A stretch of DNA of 64,000 bases from Minisyncoccota bacterium. GTDB lineage: Bacteria; Patescibacteriota; Minisyncoccia; Phycocordibacterales; Phycocordibacteraceae. Below the pieces are notes generated by a model, which was given only the letters and a program-made list of their open reading frames with translations, made no database searches and was not told the origin of the DNA. Both the position numbers and the translations under genes were made by a program. The DNA is taken from assembly GCA_018062445.1 (NCBI GenBank), contig JAGOSG010000001.1, forward strand, positions 122,426 to 186,425, in the 5' to 3' direction. Of the stretch, positions 3,981 through 32,019 are shown in pieces; the first letter of the stretch is position 1, and each line of letters starts with the position of its first letter.

Positions 3981-4997
3981 TTATCTACGCTTCGTAGTCA
4001 TTGTTTTCTTGTAGGTCTCCAAATGGTCGAGTGCAATACCAGTCCCCTTTGCAACACAGAACGCTGCCTCTTCTGCAAGCACTGCGCTCACGCCAGTACG
4101 GCGAAATACCAATTCTGGTAAGTGACGAAGTTGTGATGTGCCACCAGTCATAATAATTCCTTTGTCGATGATGTCGGCGGCGAGCTCTGGTGGAGTTTCT
4201 TGAAGTACTGTTCGTATTGCCTTTATCATCTCTCTAAGCTCTCGAGAGATTGCTCGCACAATTTCATTGGTAGAAACAGTTGCGGTTCGCGGGAGTCCCG
4301 ACAATAAGTCGCGCCCCTTAATTGCCATAGAGAGCTCTTCTTCAACAGGCACTGCGGAACCAATGCCAATTTTAATATCTTCAGCCGTCTTATCGCCAAT
4401 AGCGAGATTGTAGGTTTTCTTTATGTAGTCTGCGATTGCCTGATCAATACGATTGCCTGCACATTTCACTGAAGTTGAGGCAACGATGCCCCCCAAGGAA
4501 ATAACTGCAACGTCAATAGTGCCTCCACCAACATCGGCAATCATGTGCCCTCGGGGTTCATGAATAGGAATACCTGCACCAATGGCTGCAAGAATTGGCT
4601 CCTTAATAACATACGCATTTCGAGCACCCGCTTTAAGTCCTGCCTCAACGACAGCCCGTCTCTCTGTTGAAGTAACTCCTGCAGGAACAGAAACAATGAC
4701 ATCAGGTTTAAAAAGATTCCATGCGCCTAACGATTTTTTAATGTAGTAGCGGAGCATTGCTTCCGTAACACGATAATCGGCAATGACGCCGTCTTTCATG
4801 GGTCTGTAGGCAATGATTGAATCAGGAGTTCTACCAACCATCTCTTTTGCTTCAGAGCCGATTGCCAAAATTTTACGATCGTGGACTGACACGGCAACAA
4901 CGGATGGTTCGTTCAAAACAACACCATATCCTGGCACATACACCAATGTGGTTGTGGTGCCGAGATCAATTCCGAGCCTTGGAGAAAAGAATGACAT
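3981..4997 (-). CDS. mreB: rod shape-determining protein MreB
   Basis: MSFFSPRLGIDLGTTTTLVYV... actin-fold ATPase motifs. Start trimmed to the ATG at 4997; the track ORF extends to 5120 with non-homologous leader residues. Confidence 0.85.
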   Translation of the reverse strand: MSFFSPRLGIDLGTTTTLVYVPGYGVVLNEPSVVAVSVHDRKILAIGSEAKEMVGRTPDSIIAYRPMKDGVIADYRVTEAMLRYYIKKSLGAWNLFKPDVIVSVPAGVTSTERRAVVEAGLKAGARNAYVIKEPILAAIGAGIPIHEPRGHMIADVGGGTIDVAVISLGGIVASTSVKCAGNRIDQAIADYIKKTYNLAIGDKTAEDIKIGIGSAVPVEEELSMAIKGRDLLSGLPRTATVSTNEIVRAISRELREMIKAIRTVLQETPPELAADIIDKGIIMTGGTSQLRHLPELVFRRTGVSAVLAEEAAFCVAKGTGIALDHLETYKKTMTTKRR

Positions 4998-6043: not shown

Positions 6044-7318
6044 TTACGATCTCGTAATTTTTAACCCAACGCCTGCAAGGCGTTTTTCAATAGCTTCGTA
6101 TCCCCTGTCCATCAAGTGAGCATTACCAACATGCGATGTGCCGTCAGCAATAGCAGCGGCAAGGATGTATGCCAAACCAGCGCGAATATCAGGCCCATCA
6201 ATATCGCGTGCTTTGAGTGGAGTTTTCCCTTTCACTGTGGCGCGATGTGGATTCACCACGGCAATTTTTGCACCCATACTCACAAGCTCGGTTGTGTAGT
6301 TTAAGCGACCATTAAAAATAGTTTCTACCACAGTACTCTCTCCTTCAGCCTGAGTAAGAGCCACCATCATAGGAGCTTGAGCATCTGTTGGAAAACCTGG
6401 GTATTCGTGCGTGCGTAACTTTACCGAATTGAGAGTTTGAGGTGCTCGGATAGTAATTGAATCTTTTCCTACAGTAAGCATGGCACCCATCATGTGAAGA
6501 ATTTCAAGCACTGCATCTAAATGTTCTGGAATAACACCAGTGACAGTAAGCTCTTCGCCTGCAATTGCACCGAGAGCAAGAAAAGTTGCTGCTTCAATGC
6601 GGTCAGGCACTATGGCAAATGCCGATGTTGGTTGAGTAAGAGTTGAGGGATGAATAATAATGGTTGGAGTACCTGCTCCTTCAATATTTGCACCACATGA
6701 TTTTAAAAATTCAGCGAGAGCAACAATCTCTGGCTCCATCGCACAATTTTTTAAAGTAACCGGAGCTTTTGCCAAAGGTGCTGCCATCATGAATGTCTCT
6801 GTTGCGGTTACTGAAACAATCCTGAAAAATATTTCCCCGCCAGAAATACCGTTTGGTGCTGAGAGCGTGTACGAATCTCCACTTTCCAAATAACTAGCAC
6901 CGAGCTTTTGAAAGCCAGAAATAAAAATATCAATAGGCCTCTCCCCAATCACATCACCCCCAGGATGAGGGAATGTGACGCTTCCTAGGCGTGCGAGCAA
7001 GGGCCCAATGAGCACAATCGAAGCACGCATTGATTTTGCGAGTACGGGATCCAAAACACTTCCCGACAAGCCCTTTGCGCTTACTGTAAGCTCACTACCT
7101 TTGTGAGTAACAAACGCACCCAAGCCCTCAAGTATCCGGCCGAGTGAAGTAACATCTGCAATGTTTGGAACATTGGTAAACTTTGACTCCCCTTCAATGA
7201 GAATAGCTGCCGCCATCACCTTTAGAACATTATTTTTTGCACCATACACAGGAATAGAGCCCTTGAGGGTTTTCTTTCCTGCTAGGCCTTCGATGGTGAA
7301 CACATTTTTTGATGTCAT
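6044..7318 (-). CDS. murA: UDP-N-acetylglucosamine 1-carboxyvinyltransferase
   Basis: 424 aa, colinear with MurA/EPSP-synthase fold (MTSKNVFTIEGLAGKKTLKGSIPVYGAKNNVLKVMAAAIL...). Confidence 0.9.
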   Translation of the reverse strand: MTSKNVFTIEGLAGKKTLKGSIPVYGAKNNVLKVMAAAILIEGESKFTNVPNIADVTSLGRILEGLGAFVTHKGSELTVSAKGLSGSVLDPVLAKSMRASIVLIGPLLARLGSVTFPHPGGDVIGERPIDIFISGFQKLGASYLESGDSYTLSAPNGISGGEIFFRIVSVTATETFMMAAPLAKAPVTLKNCAMEPEIVALAEFLKSCGANIEGAGTPTIIIHPSTLTQPTSAFAIVPDRIEAATFLALGAIAGEELTVTGVIPEHLDAVLEILHMMGAMLTVGKDSITIRAPQTLNSVKLRTHEYPGFPTDAQAPMMVALTQAEGESTVVETIFNGRLNYTTELVSMGAKIAVVNPHRATVKGKTPLKARDIDGPDIRAGLAYILAAAIADGTSHVGNAHLMDRGYEAIEKRLAGVGLKITRS

Positions 7319-7425: not shown

Positions 7426-9357
7426 ATGTTCATCGTCCGTGTCATGCCCATAGCACGAGGGGTTTTTCGGGATCACCTAACATTCTTTTCTCGTGACGCT
7501 ATACCTGCAGGCATGATAGTAACTGTCTCCGTTCGTAATAGATCACTCCCTGCACTTGTTATTGAGAGTCGAGACGCGCGTGAAGAAAAACTCGATCTTC
7601 GTAGTGCTGATTTTTCATTAAAGAAAATCTCACCAAAAACAAAACCGAAACGCATTGTCACGAGTGCATTTGTTGCGGCGGTGAAAGATGCGGCGCTCTG
7701 GCATGGGGTACATGAGAGCGTTATGTTTGCAACGCTTACATCACAAGTAATTTTGACCGCTTCCAATAAACTCGAAGCCGTTCTTGAGCCAACAGCCGAG
7801 CTTAATCTCGAAACCGAGCCTGTCGTGCGCGCAGATCTTTTGGTCTTGCAAGCTGAAAAAGAAGAACGTGTTCGAACTTATAGAAATCTTGCTCGAGAAT
7901 CATTTGCTCGCGGTGAATCGGTCATGATTATAGTACCTACGGTTATTGAGGCAGAACAGATGGAAGAAAATTTGAAGCGTGGAATTGAAGACCATGTACT
8001 TCTACTTACCAGTGAAGTAAGTAAGAAAAAAATAATTGAAGCGTGGAATCGATGCAGTACCGACACAAAACCAGTGCTCATCATTGGAACTGCCTTCGCA
8101 CTTTCTGCACCACGCGTGAACATTGGCACAATAGTTGTTGAACGTGAAAGTGCGCGTGGATACCGAGGATTTTCCAGGCCTCATGTAGATGTACGCAGAT
8201 GCGCGGAATCCCTCTGCAGAAGAATGGGTGCGAGACTCATACTTGCAGATTTTCCGCTACGCATAGAAACACGCTATCGAGTAGATGCACATGAAATGGA
8301 CGAGCTAGCGAGGTCCCAAGTAAGACCAAGCGGAACTGCCGAGATATCAATTGTCGACACGAGAAAAAAAGAAATACCATTAGAGCAAACATCGAAAAAA
8401 GTTAGACGGGTCTTTACTGCACTCACTGAGGAAACAAAAGAAAAGATACATCGCGAAATACTTCGCGGTGGTCGTGCAATTGTTTTTGCAGCACGGCGTG
8501 GTATTGCCCCTCTCACTGTATGCAATGATTGTGGCACTCCAGTAACTGACCCTCACACTGGCGTACCAATGGTTCTCCATAAAACTGCCGATGGTAATCA
8601 ATTCATGTCACACCGAAGCGGTGCGACATTACCATCAGAAACACCTTGTAAAACATGCAAAGGGTGGAATTTGGTGACCTTAGGTATTGGAGTTGAGCGA
8701 GTGGCAGATGAGTTAGCGAAAGCATTCCCTGATTCCCCACTTATCACATTTACAAAAGATAGTGCGCCCACACATCGCGCAGCAAAAAAACTCTCGGAAG
8801 AATTTTTCTCTACCGCAGGGACAATACTCGTTGGTACTGAGCGAATGCTTCCATATCTAAAAAAGCCAGTAGAAATTGTGGCCGTGGCTTCGCTTGACAG
8901 CATGCTCTCTATTACCGCATGGCGCGCACACGAACACACTCTTTCTATTCTGTTCTATCTTCAAGAACATGCCGAGTTAGAGTTTATTGTAGAAACACGA
9001 AAACCAGACAGTGAAGTAATGAAAACTTTTGCCTCTGGAAATCCTGCGGATTTTTACCGTGGAGACATTAGGGAACGCGAACAATATGGATATCCTCCGT
9101 TCACTACCTTTATAGGGCTTCTATGGAAAGGAACAAAAGTAAGTGTAGAAAAAACTAGTCTTGCTATAACAGAAATATTTTCCGACATTGACTTAGTTGG
9201 ACCCCTTCCTCCTATAGCAGTTGGGAAAAGTGAGTGGAGTGCCCGCGCAGTCATACGTATACCACGGCGCGAATGGCCAAATATCACGCTCACCGAGCGT
9301 ATCCGCGCATTACCTCCTAATATAGAGATAACCGTAGATCCTGATGAGATAGTCTGA
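7426..9357 (+). CDS. priA: primosomal protein N-prime (PriA)-like replication restart protein
   Basis: 643 aa; cysteine cluster CNDCGTPV...CKTCKG typical of the PriA zinc-binding insert; N-terminal 3-prime-DNA-binding-like region. Helicase motifs look degenerate. Confidence 0.6.
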   Translation: MFIVRVMPIARGVFRDHLTFFSRDAIPAGMIVTVSVRNRSLPALVIESRDAREEKLDLRSADFSLKKISPKTKPKRIVTSAFVAAVKDAALWHGVHESVMFATLTSQVILTASNKLEAVLEPTAELNLETEPVVRADLLVLQAEKEERVRTYRNLARESFARGESVMIIVPTVIEAEQMEENLKRGIEDHVLLLTSEVSKKKIIEAWNRCSTDTKPVLIIGTAFALSAPRVNIGTIVVERESARGYRGFSRPHVDVRRCAESLCRRMGARLILADFPLRIETRYRVDAHEMDELARSQVRPSGTAEISIVDTRKKEIPLEQTSKKVRRVFTALTEETKEKIHREILRGGRAIVFAARRGIAPLTVCNDCGTPVTDPHTGVPMVLHKTADGNQFMSHRSGATLPSETPCKTCKGWNLVTLGIGVERVADELAKAFPDSPLITFTKDSAPTHRAAKKLSEEFFSTAGTILVGTERMLPYLKKPVEIVAVASLDSMLSITAWRAHEHTLSILFYLQEHAELEFIVETRKPDSEVMKTFASGNPADFYRGDIREREQYGYPPFTTFIGLLWKGTKVSVEKTSLAITEIFSDIDLVGPLPPIAVGKSEWSARAVIRIPRREWPNITLTERIRALPPNIEITVDPDEIV

Positions 9358-30542: not shown

Positions 30543-30668
30543 CTACTTTCTTTTCTTTTTGCTTGCTTTTGTGGCAAGCATCACTTTCTTTGCCGCAAGG
30601 CGTTTTGCAGTTTTATGAGGACTTTTGTGTTTCTTGAGTGAACTTACGCCGTGGCTGTTATTTCCCAT
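30543..30668 (-). CDS. hypothetical small basic protein (41 aa, MGNNSHGVSSLKKHKSPHKTAKRLAAKKVMLATKASKKKRK), not in ORF track
   Basis: Hand translation; ribosomal-protein-like composition, no family recognised. Confidence 0.3.
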   Translation of the reverse strand: MGNNSHGVSSLKKHKSPHKTAKRLAAKKVMLATKASKKKRK

Positions 30669-30865
30669 ATGTATTTTATTAGTGAGTATACCCCATTGTA
30701 CTACCTGCGGAGCGTTCGAGCGAAATGAATCCCGATCTTGTATCGGGATTCATTTCCGAGGATGCGAACGCAGGCAACCTTAGTTACCTGCGGAGCATCC
30801 GAACAAAACAAGGCGGGGCTCCACTTACTGGATGAGGTTAAAGCCTGTTGGCAAAGCAGTTCCTT

Positions 30866-31372
30866 TTATGAGTGCCTACTATGTAAAATCTTTTCCGAAT
30901 AAGCAAGCATTATCGAAGAGAAAAGGAATACGACATGAATGATAACTTGCCACATCACATTATTGAGATTTTGATTTTCGATGTTTATAAAAATTTGCAA
31001 CAAGTGGATTCCTGATATGCCAACCAGCGCACCTGCTAATTTAACTTTAAGCGTTCCCGCATCTACCTTTGACAACCACTCAGGCTTGTCTTTGTGAGTG
31101 TCAATTTCAAGTCGACTTACAAAGGTTGAGTAACCACCGATGATAACCATAATAAGAAGGTTGGCTACCATAGTGAAGTCAATAAGGGTAAGTATGCCGA
31201 GCATTAATACTGACTCAGATATATGTCCTATCTCAATAAATAAGTGAAGGAGTTCGGTGAAAAATTTGTATGAATACAGGACACCGCCCAAAACCAACCC
31301 AACATAGAGTGGTGCTTGTAGCCAACGGCTTGCGAATATAAGCTTTTCCAAGATTATCTCTGCTTTTTTCAT
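30866..31372 (-). CDS. yqhA: UPF0114 (YqhA) family membrane protein
   Basis: ILEKLIFASRWLQAPLYVGLVLGG matches the YqhA N-terminal consensus. Confidence 0.65.
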   Translation of the reverse strand: MKKAEIILEKLIFASRWLQAPLYVGLVLGGVLYSYKFFTELLHLFIEIGHISESVLMLGILTLIDFTMVANLLIMVIIGGYSTFVSRLEIDTHKDKPEWLSKVDAGTLKVKLAGALVGISGIHLLQIFINIENQNLNNVMWQVIIHVVFLFSSIMLAYSEKILHSRHS

Positions 31373-31483
31373 ATCAATAAGAGTATAGCCTATATTGGAA
31401 AAATATTGTCAGTCACGATTTCGGGCTTTGCTCCGCTTGCAAGCCGTGTTAGTTGCACACGGCTTCCCCGCTGTCGCCTCGAG

Positions 31484-31524
31484 AAAAATGAAAAACCCGC
31501 CAACAAGGCGGGATTCATTTTCTC
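31484..31524. terminator. bidirectional intrinsic terminator AATGAAAAACCCGCC-aacaa-GGCGGGATTCATTTT
   Basis: Stem-loop flanked by an A-run and a T-run. Confidence 0.6.
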
Positions 31525-31526
31525 TC

Positions 31527-31632
31527 TCGGCTCCGCGGGTAGGACTCGCCTCTCGCACTGCTGTGCTCGAAACCTACGGTCGCTCTTCGCTCCCTGCGGC
31601 CCGCGGTTCGAGTCCGTACACACGCGGAATGC
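31527..31632 (-). ncRNA. degenerate tRNA-like element (tRNA-Asn paralog remnant); starts with a 20-nt direct repeat of the tRNA-Asn 3-prime end
   Basis: GGCTCCGCGGGTAGGACTCG (31527-31546) vs TGCTCCGCGGGTAGGACTCG at the tRNA 3-prime end (19/20). Reverse strand shows GTAGG..CCTAC T-stem, CCGCGGA acceptor strand and a 5-prime TCCGCG, but the T-loop region is expanded to about 29 nt and no anticodon arm folds. Confidence 0.3.
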
Positions 31633-31640
31633 ATAAGTCT

Positions 31641-31670
31641 AAAAAAGCCCCCATGCATGGGGGTATTTTT
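31641..31670. terminator. bidirectional terminator AAAAAAGCCCCCATGCATGGGGGTATTTTT
   Basis: GC stem flanked by A- and T-runs, just 3-prime of tRNA-Asn. Confidence 0.6.
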
Positions 31671-31676
31671 ATACTT

Positions 31677-31750
31677 TGCTCCGCGGGTAGGACTCGAACC
31701 TACAACCAACTCCTTAACAGGGAGCTGCTCTACCATTGAGCTACCGCGGA
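31677..31750 (-). tRNA. tRNA-Asn (anticodon GUU)
   Basis: Reverse strand TCCGCGG-TA-GCTC-AATGGT-AGAGC-A-GCTCC-CTGTTAA-GGAGT-TGGTT-GTAGG-TTCGAGT-CCTAC-CCGCGGA-G gives a full cloverleaf; CCA not encoded. Confidence 0.7.
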
Positions 31751-32019
31751 ATAATATTGTGTCGTCTTACGACAACACTTATTCTGCGGAGCTCAAGAAT
31801 TGAGCTACTTCCGGAGGAGCCGAGGGTCATGGAAAGTTTACTTTCATATGACCGAGACGACGACTGGAAGAAAGCCTAGCTTCTAGGCTTACCGCGGAAT
31901 ACATTCCTAAAAAAAGAACATACACCCGCAGTCAAACAGTGACCGCGGAATGTCTCACTATTCTACCCAAAATAGGCATTTACGCCAGAGCCAGCCCGTG
32001 CGCCTGCCTCCCTTCCCTC

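Follow-up and report, generated by a model that had tools for sequence, protein, structure and literature searches.

A candidate integration hot spot for defence islands at the tRNA-Asn gene of Paceibacteria, apparently without an integrase of its own

Why does the tRNA-Asn gene of a Minisyncoccota bacterium have a second copy of its own 3' end a short distance downstream, and what are the structured units around the two copies? We addressed this question in a stretch of 64,000 nucleotides (contig JAGOSG010000001.1, positions 122,426 to 186,425), which we call the window. Its sole tRNA gene according to ARAGORN is an intact, intron-less tRNA-Asn(GTT) at 31678-31750 on the minus strand (Rfam RF00005, 73.3 bits), which confirms the minus-strand tRNA-Asn of an earlier, sequence-only reading of this DNA. 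The last 19 nt of the gene, from the T-loop to nt 74 (X1, the attachment (att) core, 31678-31696), recur as an exact direct copy at 31530-31548 (X2); both copies read CGAGTCCTACCCGCGGAGC on the minus strand, and their starts are 148 nt apart. X2 emerged from repeat analysis and from a search with an 18-mer of the tRNA end, which at up to three mismatches gave two matches in the window against 0.02 expected. The earlier reading had placed this repeat at 31527-31546; the repeat itself is real, with coordinates that move by 2-3 nt. It had also pointed out that a second complete tRNA would make the repeat an ordinary paralog. Neither ARAGORN nor Rfam detects a second tRNA or a tmRNA in the window, and at E values up to 10 Rfam places no tRNA or tmRNA outside 31679-31750 and no other family at the locus. 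We think it probable that, in a group of Paceibacteria (Patescibacteria), the downstream flank of tRNA-Asn serves as a hot spot for site-specific integration. Judged from its sequence, the window is most aptly described as a defence-island hot spot that is anchored at tRNA-Asn, apparently lacks an integrase and stands unoccupied; it holds a 148-bp cargo-less mini-insert between X1 and X2, a terminator hairpin (T2) and an older hairpin unit (Mcore).

The mini-insert consists of two parts. T1, a bidirectional intrinsic-terminator hairpin (31635-31676, both strands, stem at 31647-31664), comes right after the tRNA, and U4, an element of about 105 nt (31527-31631, minus strand), is composed of an arm that we call X', an interior and the X2 copy. 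Next come T2, the second bidirectional terminator hairpin (31490-31529, both strands, stem at 31496-31512), and Mcore, a unit of about 48 nt (31430-31477, minus strand). The two bidirectional terminators proposed earlier thus hold up as terminator-like hairpins; terminator-like sites number 7 against 1.1 expected. That T1 and U4 form a discrete insert of 148 bp follows from relatives that lack them and have the tRNA joined to the flank that otherwise comes after X2. In the relative L074, the tRNA is joined directly to CGAGGCAGAAAAT, a terminator and Mcore, whereas in the window and in L070 the homologous flank, CGAGAGAGAAAAT followed by a terminator and Mcore, comes after X2 and not after the tRNA. 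A second, independent comparison gives the same picture, with the tRNA joined to ATTTTAGGAAAATACATCGCCC in L145 and the homologous flank ATCTAAGGAAAATACATCGCCC standing after X2 in L143. X2 is therefore the att core that the insert displaced, and it forms the insert's right boundary; T2, which is found directly after the tRNA in relatives without the insert, is native-type flank.

Larger inserts occupy the same position, between tRNA-Asn and a gene for a Na+/H+ exchanger. Scanning one genome per species with the 18-mer gave 120 tRNA-Asn loci. In one of them, L070 (Parcubacteria Greene0714_7), whose flanks match the window at 96.8% identity over 3.2 kb, an extra 3.98 kb lies between perfect 59-nt direct repeats composed of X2 and T2 (657-715 and 4640-4698). 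The island, which is bounded by the perfect 59-nt repeats and by 26-nt repeats, codes for an uncharacterised protein of 334 aa, a C5 cytosine methylase and an EcoRII-type endonuclease, and L070 has three att copies in a row. The comparison of related genomes that had been proposed as a check on the duplicated tRNA end thus yields a restriction-modification island in a relative that is about 97% identical. Since the window holds the 59-mer only once (31490-31548), it represents the island-free state; the two loci are separated by more than one event, because their numbers of Mcore units differ. Other relatives have other cargo. The order is tRNA, Mcore, Mcore, IetA and IetS, Mcore in L074 (with repeats of 112 nt that are 98% identical), and tRNA, T1, U4, Mcore, Mcore, a 1479-aa protein, Mcore in L095. 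In L143, an island with a PLD-SNF2 helicase and an Eco57I-type methylase follows the tRNA, and beyond it come a degenerate tRNA end, T1, U4, a T2-like terminator, two Mcore units and the UPF0114 gene. These differences mark the position as a variable hot spot, occupied for the most part by anti-phage defence genes. Two properties of tRNA-targeting islands are present here, namely a direct repeat of the tRNA 3' segment (19 nt in the window, 59 and 26 nt in L070) and an empty site (L074 against the window and L070, L145 against L143). The interpretation of the duplicated tRNA end as an integration footprint is supported by both pairs of junctions and by the L070 island. In other phyla, about 8 of about 115 tRNA-Asn loci show the 18-mer again 0.2-2.8 kb downstream, with small cargo and no second tRNA, and two tRNA-Asn loci have a tyrosine integrase-like open reading frame (ORF) within a few hundred nucleotides of the tRNA.

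Together, these comparisons suggest a model. The att core would be the 19-nt repeat, which runs from the T-loop through the discriminator and one base further, and crossover would take place inside it, brought about by a recombinase acting in trans. An incoming element would supply its own tRNA 3' end and terminator, so that the tRNA stays functional, and its insertion would displace the previous 3' end downstream. Successive insertions would then line up units with the common ending ...GCGGAGC. The junction of an excised circle would read ...GCGAGAGG + core + AAAGTATAAAAA, and excision would leave a chromosome with the tRNA joined to CGAGAGAGAAAAT.

What, then, is the content of the mini-insert? 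Read on the minus strand, U4 starts with an inverted copy of the tRNA end, TCCGCGtGTgtAcGGACTCGAACC, which is followed by a spacer of about 30 nt, GTAGGTTtCGAG, an 18-nt insert with a small hairpin, and GAGTCCTACCCGCGGAGC. This layout agrees with the earlier description of an element of about 105 nt with an expanded T-loop region and no anticodon arm, and the motif ATTCCGCGTG, noted near 31624, was found at 31622-31631. The 5' arm X' (31605-31631, minus strand), recognised by a palindrome and an 11-mer match, repeats the tRNA 3' end imperfectly and in inverted orientation; within it, the 11-mer GGACTCGAACC matches the reverse complement of GGTTCGAGTCC, the T-loop box, at all 11 positions. X1, T1 and X' together form a palindrome of about 100 nt (102 nt, 78%; 31605-31700) that is centred on T1 and has similar counterparts in L070 and L095. 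In the U4 interior (31549-31604, minus strand) lie two purine-rich motifs, GGAGCGAAGAGCGACC and GCGAGAGGCGAG, part of a T-arm 5' strand (GTAGGTTTCGAG) and the small 4-bp hairpin GCAC-AGCA-GTGC (31555-31566, minus strand). Mcore reads GCGACAGCGGGGAAGC, a hairpin with a 7-nt loop, and GCTTGCAAGCGGAGC; its end, GCGGAGC-A, resembles a tRNA end, which makes it the third, degenerate tRNA-3'-end-like unit at the locus. Relatives have one to four Mcore copies, arranged head to tail and confined to the tRNA-Asn hot spot. Neither U4 nor Mcore, nor the element U2 upstream of the tRNA that is described below, contains a cloverleaf that scores with ARAGORN or with Rfam at E values up to 10, and U4 holds no intron-containing tRNA.

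Parts of this arrangement recur widely. The layout of terminator, inverted T-loop copy, variable interior, purine-rich motif and 3'-end copy is found in L142, in L093 (Saccharibacteria) and in L079, and its 3' part only in L118. Purine-rich motifs like those 5' of X2 stand before the core at island right ends also in L093, L142 and L118; in L065, where the island bears cargo, the motif in this position reads GAGGCGAGAGGCGAGGGCGAG, so that the 3' half of U4 resembles the island-proximal arm of a right attachment site (attR). The interior varies in length between lineages, from about 56 to about 125 nt. A pattern search for the tRNA end, N50-75 and the inverted T-loop in metagenome contigs of the Joint Genome Institute (JGI) had one match, L142; the exact U4 architecture is therefore rare in those contigs, and degenerate forms are found in L079, L093 and L118. 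The pattern of the U4 3' arm had no matches in viral contigs, and in phage and plasmid collections nothing but tRNA-Asn itself was matched. The units also differ in how well they are conserved. U4 is 97% identical to L143 and 92% identical to L070, with an interior that is 95-96% identical in both (96% in L070). T1 is 100% identical to L143, 50% to L070, and 50-61% across L070 and L095, which have a different hairpin in its position. T2 is 46% identical to L143 and 79% to L070, and Mcore is 98% identical to L143 (it was not aligned with L070). We considered a coding cause for the conservation of U4 and rejected it: the plus-strand ORFs at 31395-31739 run across the terminators and antisense to the tRNA, and the differences between the window and L070 in them are non-synonymous.

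Several observations weigh against site-specific integration, at least as the whole explanation. The first concerns the enzyme. With a single E. coli XerD sequence as the probe, which very divergent recombinases could escape, phmmer found no XerD-like protein in the Patescibacteria loci or among the 127 window ORFs that reach 100 aa, and Pfam recognised no recombinase among the scanned island proteins of L070 and L074. An integrase gene at the element end, as in tRNA-targeting islands, is found neither in the window nor in the related loci that we checked. The second concerns the edges of the L070 island: L070 also has extra Mcore units, and the island does not look like a clean single insertion. 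The third concerns conservation. The inverted 11-mer GGACTCGAACC follows the terminator in L070, L095, L142, L143, L093 and L079, and it is invariant in seven lineages whose terminators are all different, for which a simple insertion model has no explanation; all U4-like copies that we encountered, in at least seven lineages, keep an inverted T-loop copy. When the window is compared with L143, identity is 97-100% for U4, T1 and Mcore, 78-87% for the flanking genes (about 97% in the comparison with L070) and 46% for T2. To judge by these alignments, the patchwork, which differs from the neutral decay to be expected in scars, looks like conserved sites separated by exchangeable pieces. The small hairpin of U4 has one compensatory change, from GCAC/GTGC to GCAT/ATGC. 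Across 12 copies, the Mcore hairpin shows 3 pairs and 8 cells with double changes, a covariation that none of 500 shuffles equalled, and 97% of its cells are paired, a share that drops to 19-61% if one partner is slid against the other. The high conservation of U4 and Mcore and the constant inverted T-loop copy are not explained by insertion alone. Identities of 97-98% for U4 and the hairpin unit next to genes at 78-87%, together with the compensatory changes in the hairpins, also speak against the inert scar of an excised element that the sequence-only reading had entertained.

Could the units themselves be the recombination sites? An alternative to which we assign a small probability holds that U4, from X' to X2, and the Mcore hairpins are folded-hairpin sites of a cassette-capture platform. 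The sites would be read as structured single-stranded or cruciform DNA, with the tRNA-Asn 3' end as the primary site, and a recombinase encoded elsewhere would insert terminator cassettes, with or without a gene, after ...GCGGAGC. Such a platform fits a Mcore hairpin whose structure is kept while its sequence varies, conserved units that alternate with swapped cassettes (T1, T2, cargo), and the presence of GCGGAGC at the end of every unit. It also fits islands without an integrase, yet no recombinase has been identified for it either. U4 is an imperfect palindrome of about 105 nt, and X1-T1-X' is a second one of about 100 nt in the window, L070 and L095; however, whole-U4 folding is not clearly more stable than that of shuffled sequences (z = -1.7 and -1.9), and covariation in U4 amounts to the one compensatory change. 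The long island repeats in L070 and L074 (59-125 nt) would be produced equally well by double-stranded att homology or by homologous recombination, and the architecture was found only once in JGI metagenome contigs.

Integron attC sites and the attP site of CTX phage are known as folded single-stranded recombination sites, and they share with the present units imperfect palindromes of 60-140 nt that bound cassettes and keep structure over sequence, a short conserved core at the junction, and inverted target copies that can fold into a duplex site. In contrast to them, the locus has no IntI or identified Xer partner, its core is GCGGAGC and neither GTTRRRY nor dif, and it gives no sign of single-strand recombination. 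Measured against integron cassette arrays, no tyrosine recombinase was found and the unit ends are GCGGAGC instead of GTTRRRY, so that a hairpin with covariation is the sole property that the two have in common.

A further alternative, which we regard as quite unlikely, takes U4 and Mcore for tRNA-like minihelix RNAs, each built from an acceptor-like stem and a hairpin like a T-arm. Their transcription would accompany or follow that of tRNA-Asn, RNase P or RNase Z would process them, and they might serve as transcript-end signals of the cassettes. The units do end like a tRNA (...GCGGAGC-A), each with its own terminator after it, but the canonical terminator T1 lies only about 10 nt before U4, without a promoter-like site in between. 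They are better conserved than the coding flanks, although the U4 interior changes in length from about 56 to about 125 nt between lineages and no tRNA, tmRNA or other Rfam family matches at E up to 10. A C-to-U change in the U4 of L070 keeps a G.U pair on the tRNA-sense strand, and the adjoining U2 behaves as an RNA on that same strand. The hairpin covariation would suit an RNA as well, but the strand signal of Mcore is ambiguous, since two A.C cells on the tRNA-sense strand are G.T on the other, and its acceptor-like stem is weak. Very improbable, finally, is the pseudogene array that the sequence-only reading had considered, in which U4, Mcore and U2 are leftovers of a decaying tandem duplication of tRNA-Asn: U2 does open with the first 11-12 nt of the tRNA and has one D-arm-like hairpin, and U4 retains T-stem and acceptor sequences, but the repeats are limited to the 3' 19-27 nt of the tRNA downstream and its 5' 10-12 nt upstream, no copy has a cloverleaf or an anticodon arm, the units are conserved and covarying instead of decaying, and the presence/absence polymorphisms are bounded by repeats.

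The repeats on the other side of the tRNA have a different character. The 5'-end motif ATTCCGCGGT occurs exactly at 31743-31752, 31891-31900 and 31942-31951, and no other exact copy exists in the 64 kb; the recurrences reported earlier are exact, with the third coordinate shifted by 1 nt, and the hairpins said to follow them are there. The upstream copies are not integration footprints; each forms the 5' strand of another structure, one of them a hairpin (U1) and the other a covarying element (U2). The distal copy opens U1 (31925-31951, minus strand), a terminator-like hairpin TCCGCGGTCACTGTTTGACTGCGGG with a T-rich tail that stands 70 nt after a DUF1003 gene; in its L070 counterpart, ATTCTGTGG...CCACAGAAT, the stem is kept through changes on both strands. 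The middle copy (31891-31900) belongs to U2, a cloverleaf-like element of about 125 nt (31778-31902, minus strand), and makes up the 5' side of its closing stem. This acceptor-like stem, ATTCCGCGG/CCGCAGAAT, reproduces the acceptor 5' strand of the tRNA, the first 11-12 nt of tRNA-Asn forming the start of U2; it is followed by 'TA' and three hairpins, among them AGCTCAATTCTTGAGCT at 31791-31808. U2 is kept upstream of tRNA-Asn in three Paceibacteria and three Saccharibacteria loci. In these six sequences, 90% of the cells of its 36 pairs are paired against 30-46% when slid, 8 of the 36 pairs have double changes, and the covariation score is reached by 0 of 500 shuffles. G.U pairs are kept on the tRNA-sense strand, with U.G at one pair in five of the six sequences. 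U2 thus has both the compensatory changes and the strand-specific G.U pairs of a conserved structured RNA; to judge from the alignment it behaves like a structured RNA and not like an integration footprint, and it is a candidate new RNA, for which the support is preliminary because there are six sequences only. A covariance model scores 84-134 bits in the six loci from which it was built and found no copy beyond these six among 53 loci; a 27-bit match at 1768-1880 in L074 was rejected, as it coincides with the region of a small basic ORF.

As to the distribution of U2, it exists in two sequence types, each of them common to both classes, Paceibacteria and Saccharibacteria, and the U2 of L070 resembles the Saccharibacteria copies. 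A 16-mer from a U2 hairpin had 11 matches in viral contigs, all in unrelated coding sequence. A search for synteny through the DUF1003 gene gave homologues that are 80% identical (L008-L010), without a tRNA nearby. In L074, an ORF resembling an HNH endonuclease lies upstream of U2. A wider extension, to which we likewise give little probability, would see in some Patescibacteria an integrase-less, tRNA-anchored platform in which U4 and Mcore, mimicking the end of tRNA-Asn, are functional folded-DNA sites for integron-like exchange of defence genes, with the recombinase encoded elsewhere or on a helper element, and U2 as a further new class of RNA tied to tRNA-Asn.

The tRNA-Asn gene is also the site of another kind of insertion. 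In many relatives, a group I intron of about 220 nt splits it between anticodon positions U35 and U36 (L070 272-492, L074 about 6717-6930, L095 about 7663-7876, L145 264-503; also in L035, L055, L060, L079, L097, L107, L117 and L130). The assignment comes from Rfam RF00028, with 64-68 bits in three loci, and from gene length in the other loci. The tRNA-Asn of the window lacks the intron, and ARAGORN misses genes split by it. In these lineages, tRNA-Asn is therefore a target of group I introns and islands simultaneously; a search of the literature on tRNA-Asn group I introns and on Patescibacteria islands turned up nothing specific. The segment from U1 through U2 and the tRNA to T1 (31632-31951, against 1-580 in L070) has about 69% identity to L070 outside the exons, and both flanks have about 97%. 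The contrast suggests that the tRNA segment has been replaced as a whole, possibly by co-conversion during intron homing.

How does the hot spot compare with known ones? The 3' ends of tRNA genes, those for asparagine included, are classical targets of integrases, and P4-type elements and the Yersinia high-pathogenicity island at asn tRNA genes are examples that use a tyrosine integrase; the role of tRNA 3' ends as integrase targets was reportedly set out by Williams in 2002, reference 26 in PMC10121019. As in such islands and prophages, the insert lies between direct repeats of a 3' piece of the tRNA, here everything from the T-loop onwards; the tRNA is left intact, since a new 3' end and terminator come with the insert; and relatives differ in the presence of cargo at the exact point. 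Unlike in these, no integrase is found in the islands or in the 64-kb window, the insert is a mere 148 bp, and an inverted T-loop copy and conserved structured units stand beside the core. Elements without an integrase that are mobilised in cis and accrete in tandem are known from Streptococcus thermophilus (cis-mobilisable elements, CIMEs, related to the integrative and conjugative element (ICE) ICESt1). They resemble the present locus in being att-flanked without recombination genes and in having att copies in a row (three in L070; tRNA, island, degenerate X, mini-insert and X2 in L143). They differ in that here no partner ICE or integrase is seen, the units measure tens to hundreds of bp with terminators as their sole content, and the host is a Patescibacterium with a reduced genome. 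In a pan-genome study of E. coli, 18 of 41 defence hot spots are in tRNA loci, and many occupied ones have no recognisable mobile element (PMC10121019). The present locus is like them in its fixed position beside a tRNA with differing systems (EcoRII restriction-modification, IetAS, helicase/methylase) and in occupied sites that often lack recognisable mobility genes, and unlike them in boundaries that form an array of tRNA-end-like structured repeats and in belonging to an uncultivated lineage of the candidate phyla radiation (CPR).

Islands linked to tRNA genes are textbook biology; what is unusual here is that no integrase is found, that the structured units are conserved and that the inverted T-loop copy is constant. 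How CPR bacteria with reduced genomes acquire and exchange defence genes is poorly known, and the locus offers a definite position at which genomes can be compared. With four different cargos at one position, no visible integrase and conserved structured boundaries, it allows ideas on how cargo turns over to be tested with population metagenomes, and it also provides, in U2, a candidate tRNA-like RNA.

The row of tRNA-end-like units may extend further downstream. The UPF0114-family membrane protein gene (30866-31372, minus strand; Pfam PF03350) sits within the field of these units; it is present in L070 and L143 and absent from L095 and from L074, which has DUF1428 in its place. As only some relatives have it, the gene is possibly itself a captured cassette. 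Beyond it, the tRNA-3'-end-like 12-mer TACCTGCGGAGC occurs twice in inverted orientation (30702-30713 and 30785-30796, plus strand), with a third bidirectional terminator hairpin between the two copies (30702-30796). All four matches of the 12-mer in the window lie inside 30702-31689, where 0.07 would be expected by chance, and the best explanation for the degenerate inverted copies is that they belong to the same row of att-like units.

The locus is also hard to assemble. The NCBI contig JAGONU010000027 and several Logan contigs match the window at 100% identity, and the short-read contigs from four samples (L001-L007), as well as the NCBI contig of a metagenome-assembled genome (MAG), all end inside 31444-31733. 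These ends are likely caused by tRNA and repeat units that are common to several genomes, and because contigs break there, the locus is systematically missing from MAGs. We had considered the breaks as evidence of strain polymorphism and dropped this idea, as k-mer sharing between identical tRNA and repeat units explains them better.

Other observations concern the surroundings. At the right end of the L143 island, a GC-rich non-coding stretch of 720 nt (7925-8645) folds much more stably than shuffled sequences (z = -7.5) and contains a perfect 24-bp inverted repeat with arms about 300 nt apart; it has no Rfam match. The palindrome GGTTCGAACC, or near variants of it, occurs downstream of tRNA-Asn in L026, L067 and L043, all of them other Patescibacteria, inside an apparently conserved gene. 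Upstream of the Na+/H+ exchanger gene, finally, the window has a very basic ORF of 41 aa (MGNNSHGVSSLKKHKSPHKTAKRLAAKKVMLATKASKKKRK; 30543-30668, minus strand), which is 94% identical in DNA to L145, whose adjacent genes are about 73% identical, and which is probably a conserved gene for a small protein.

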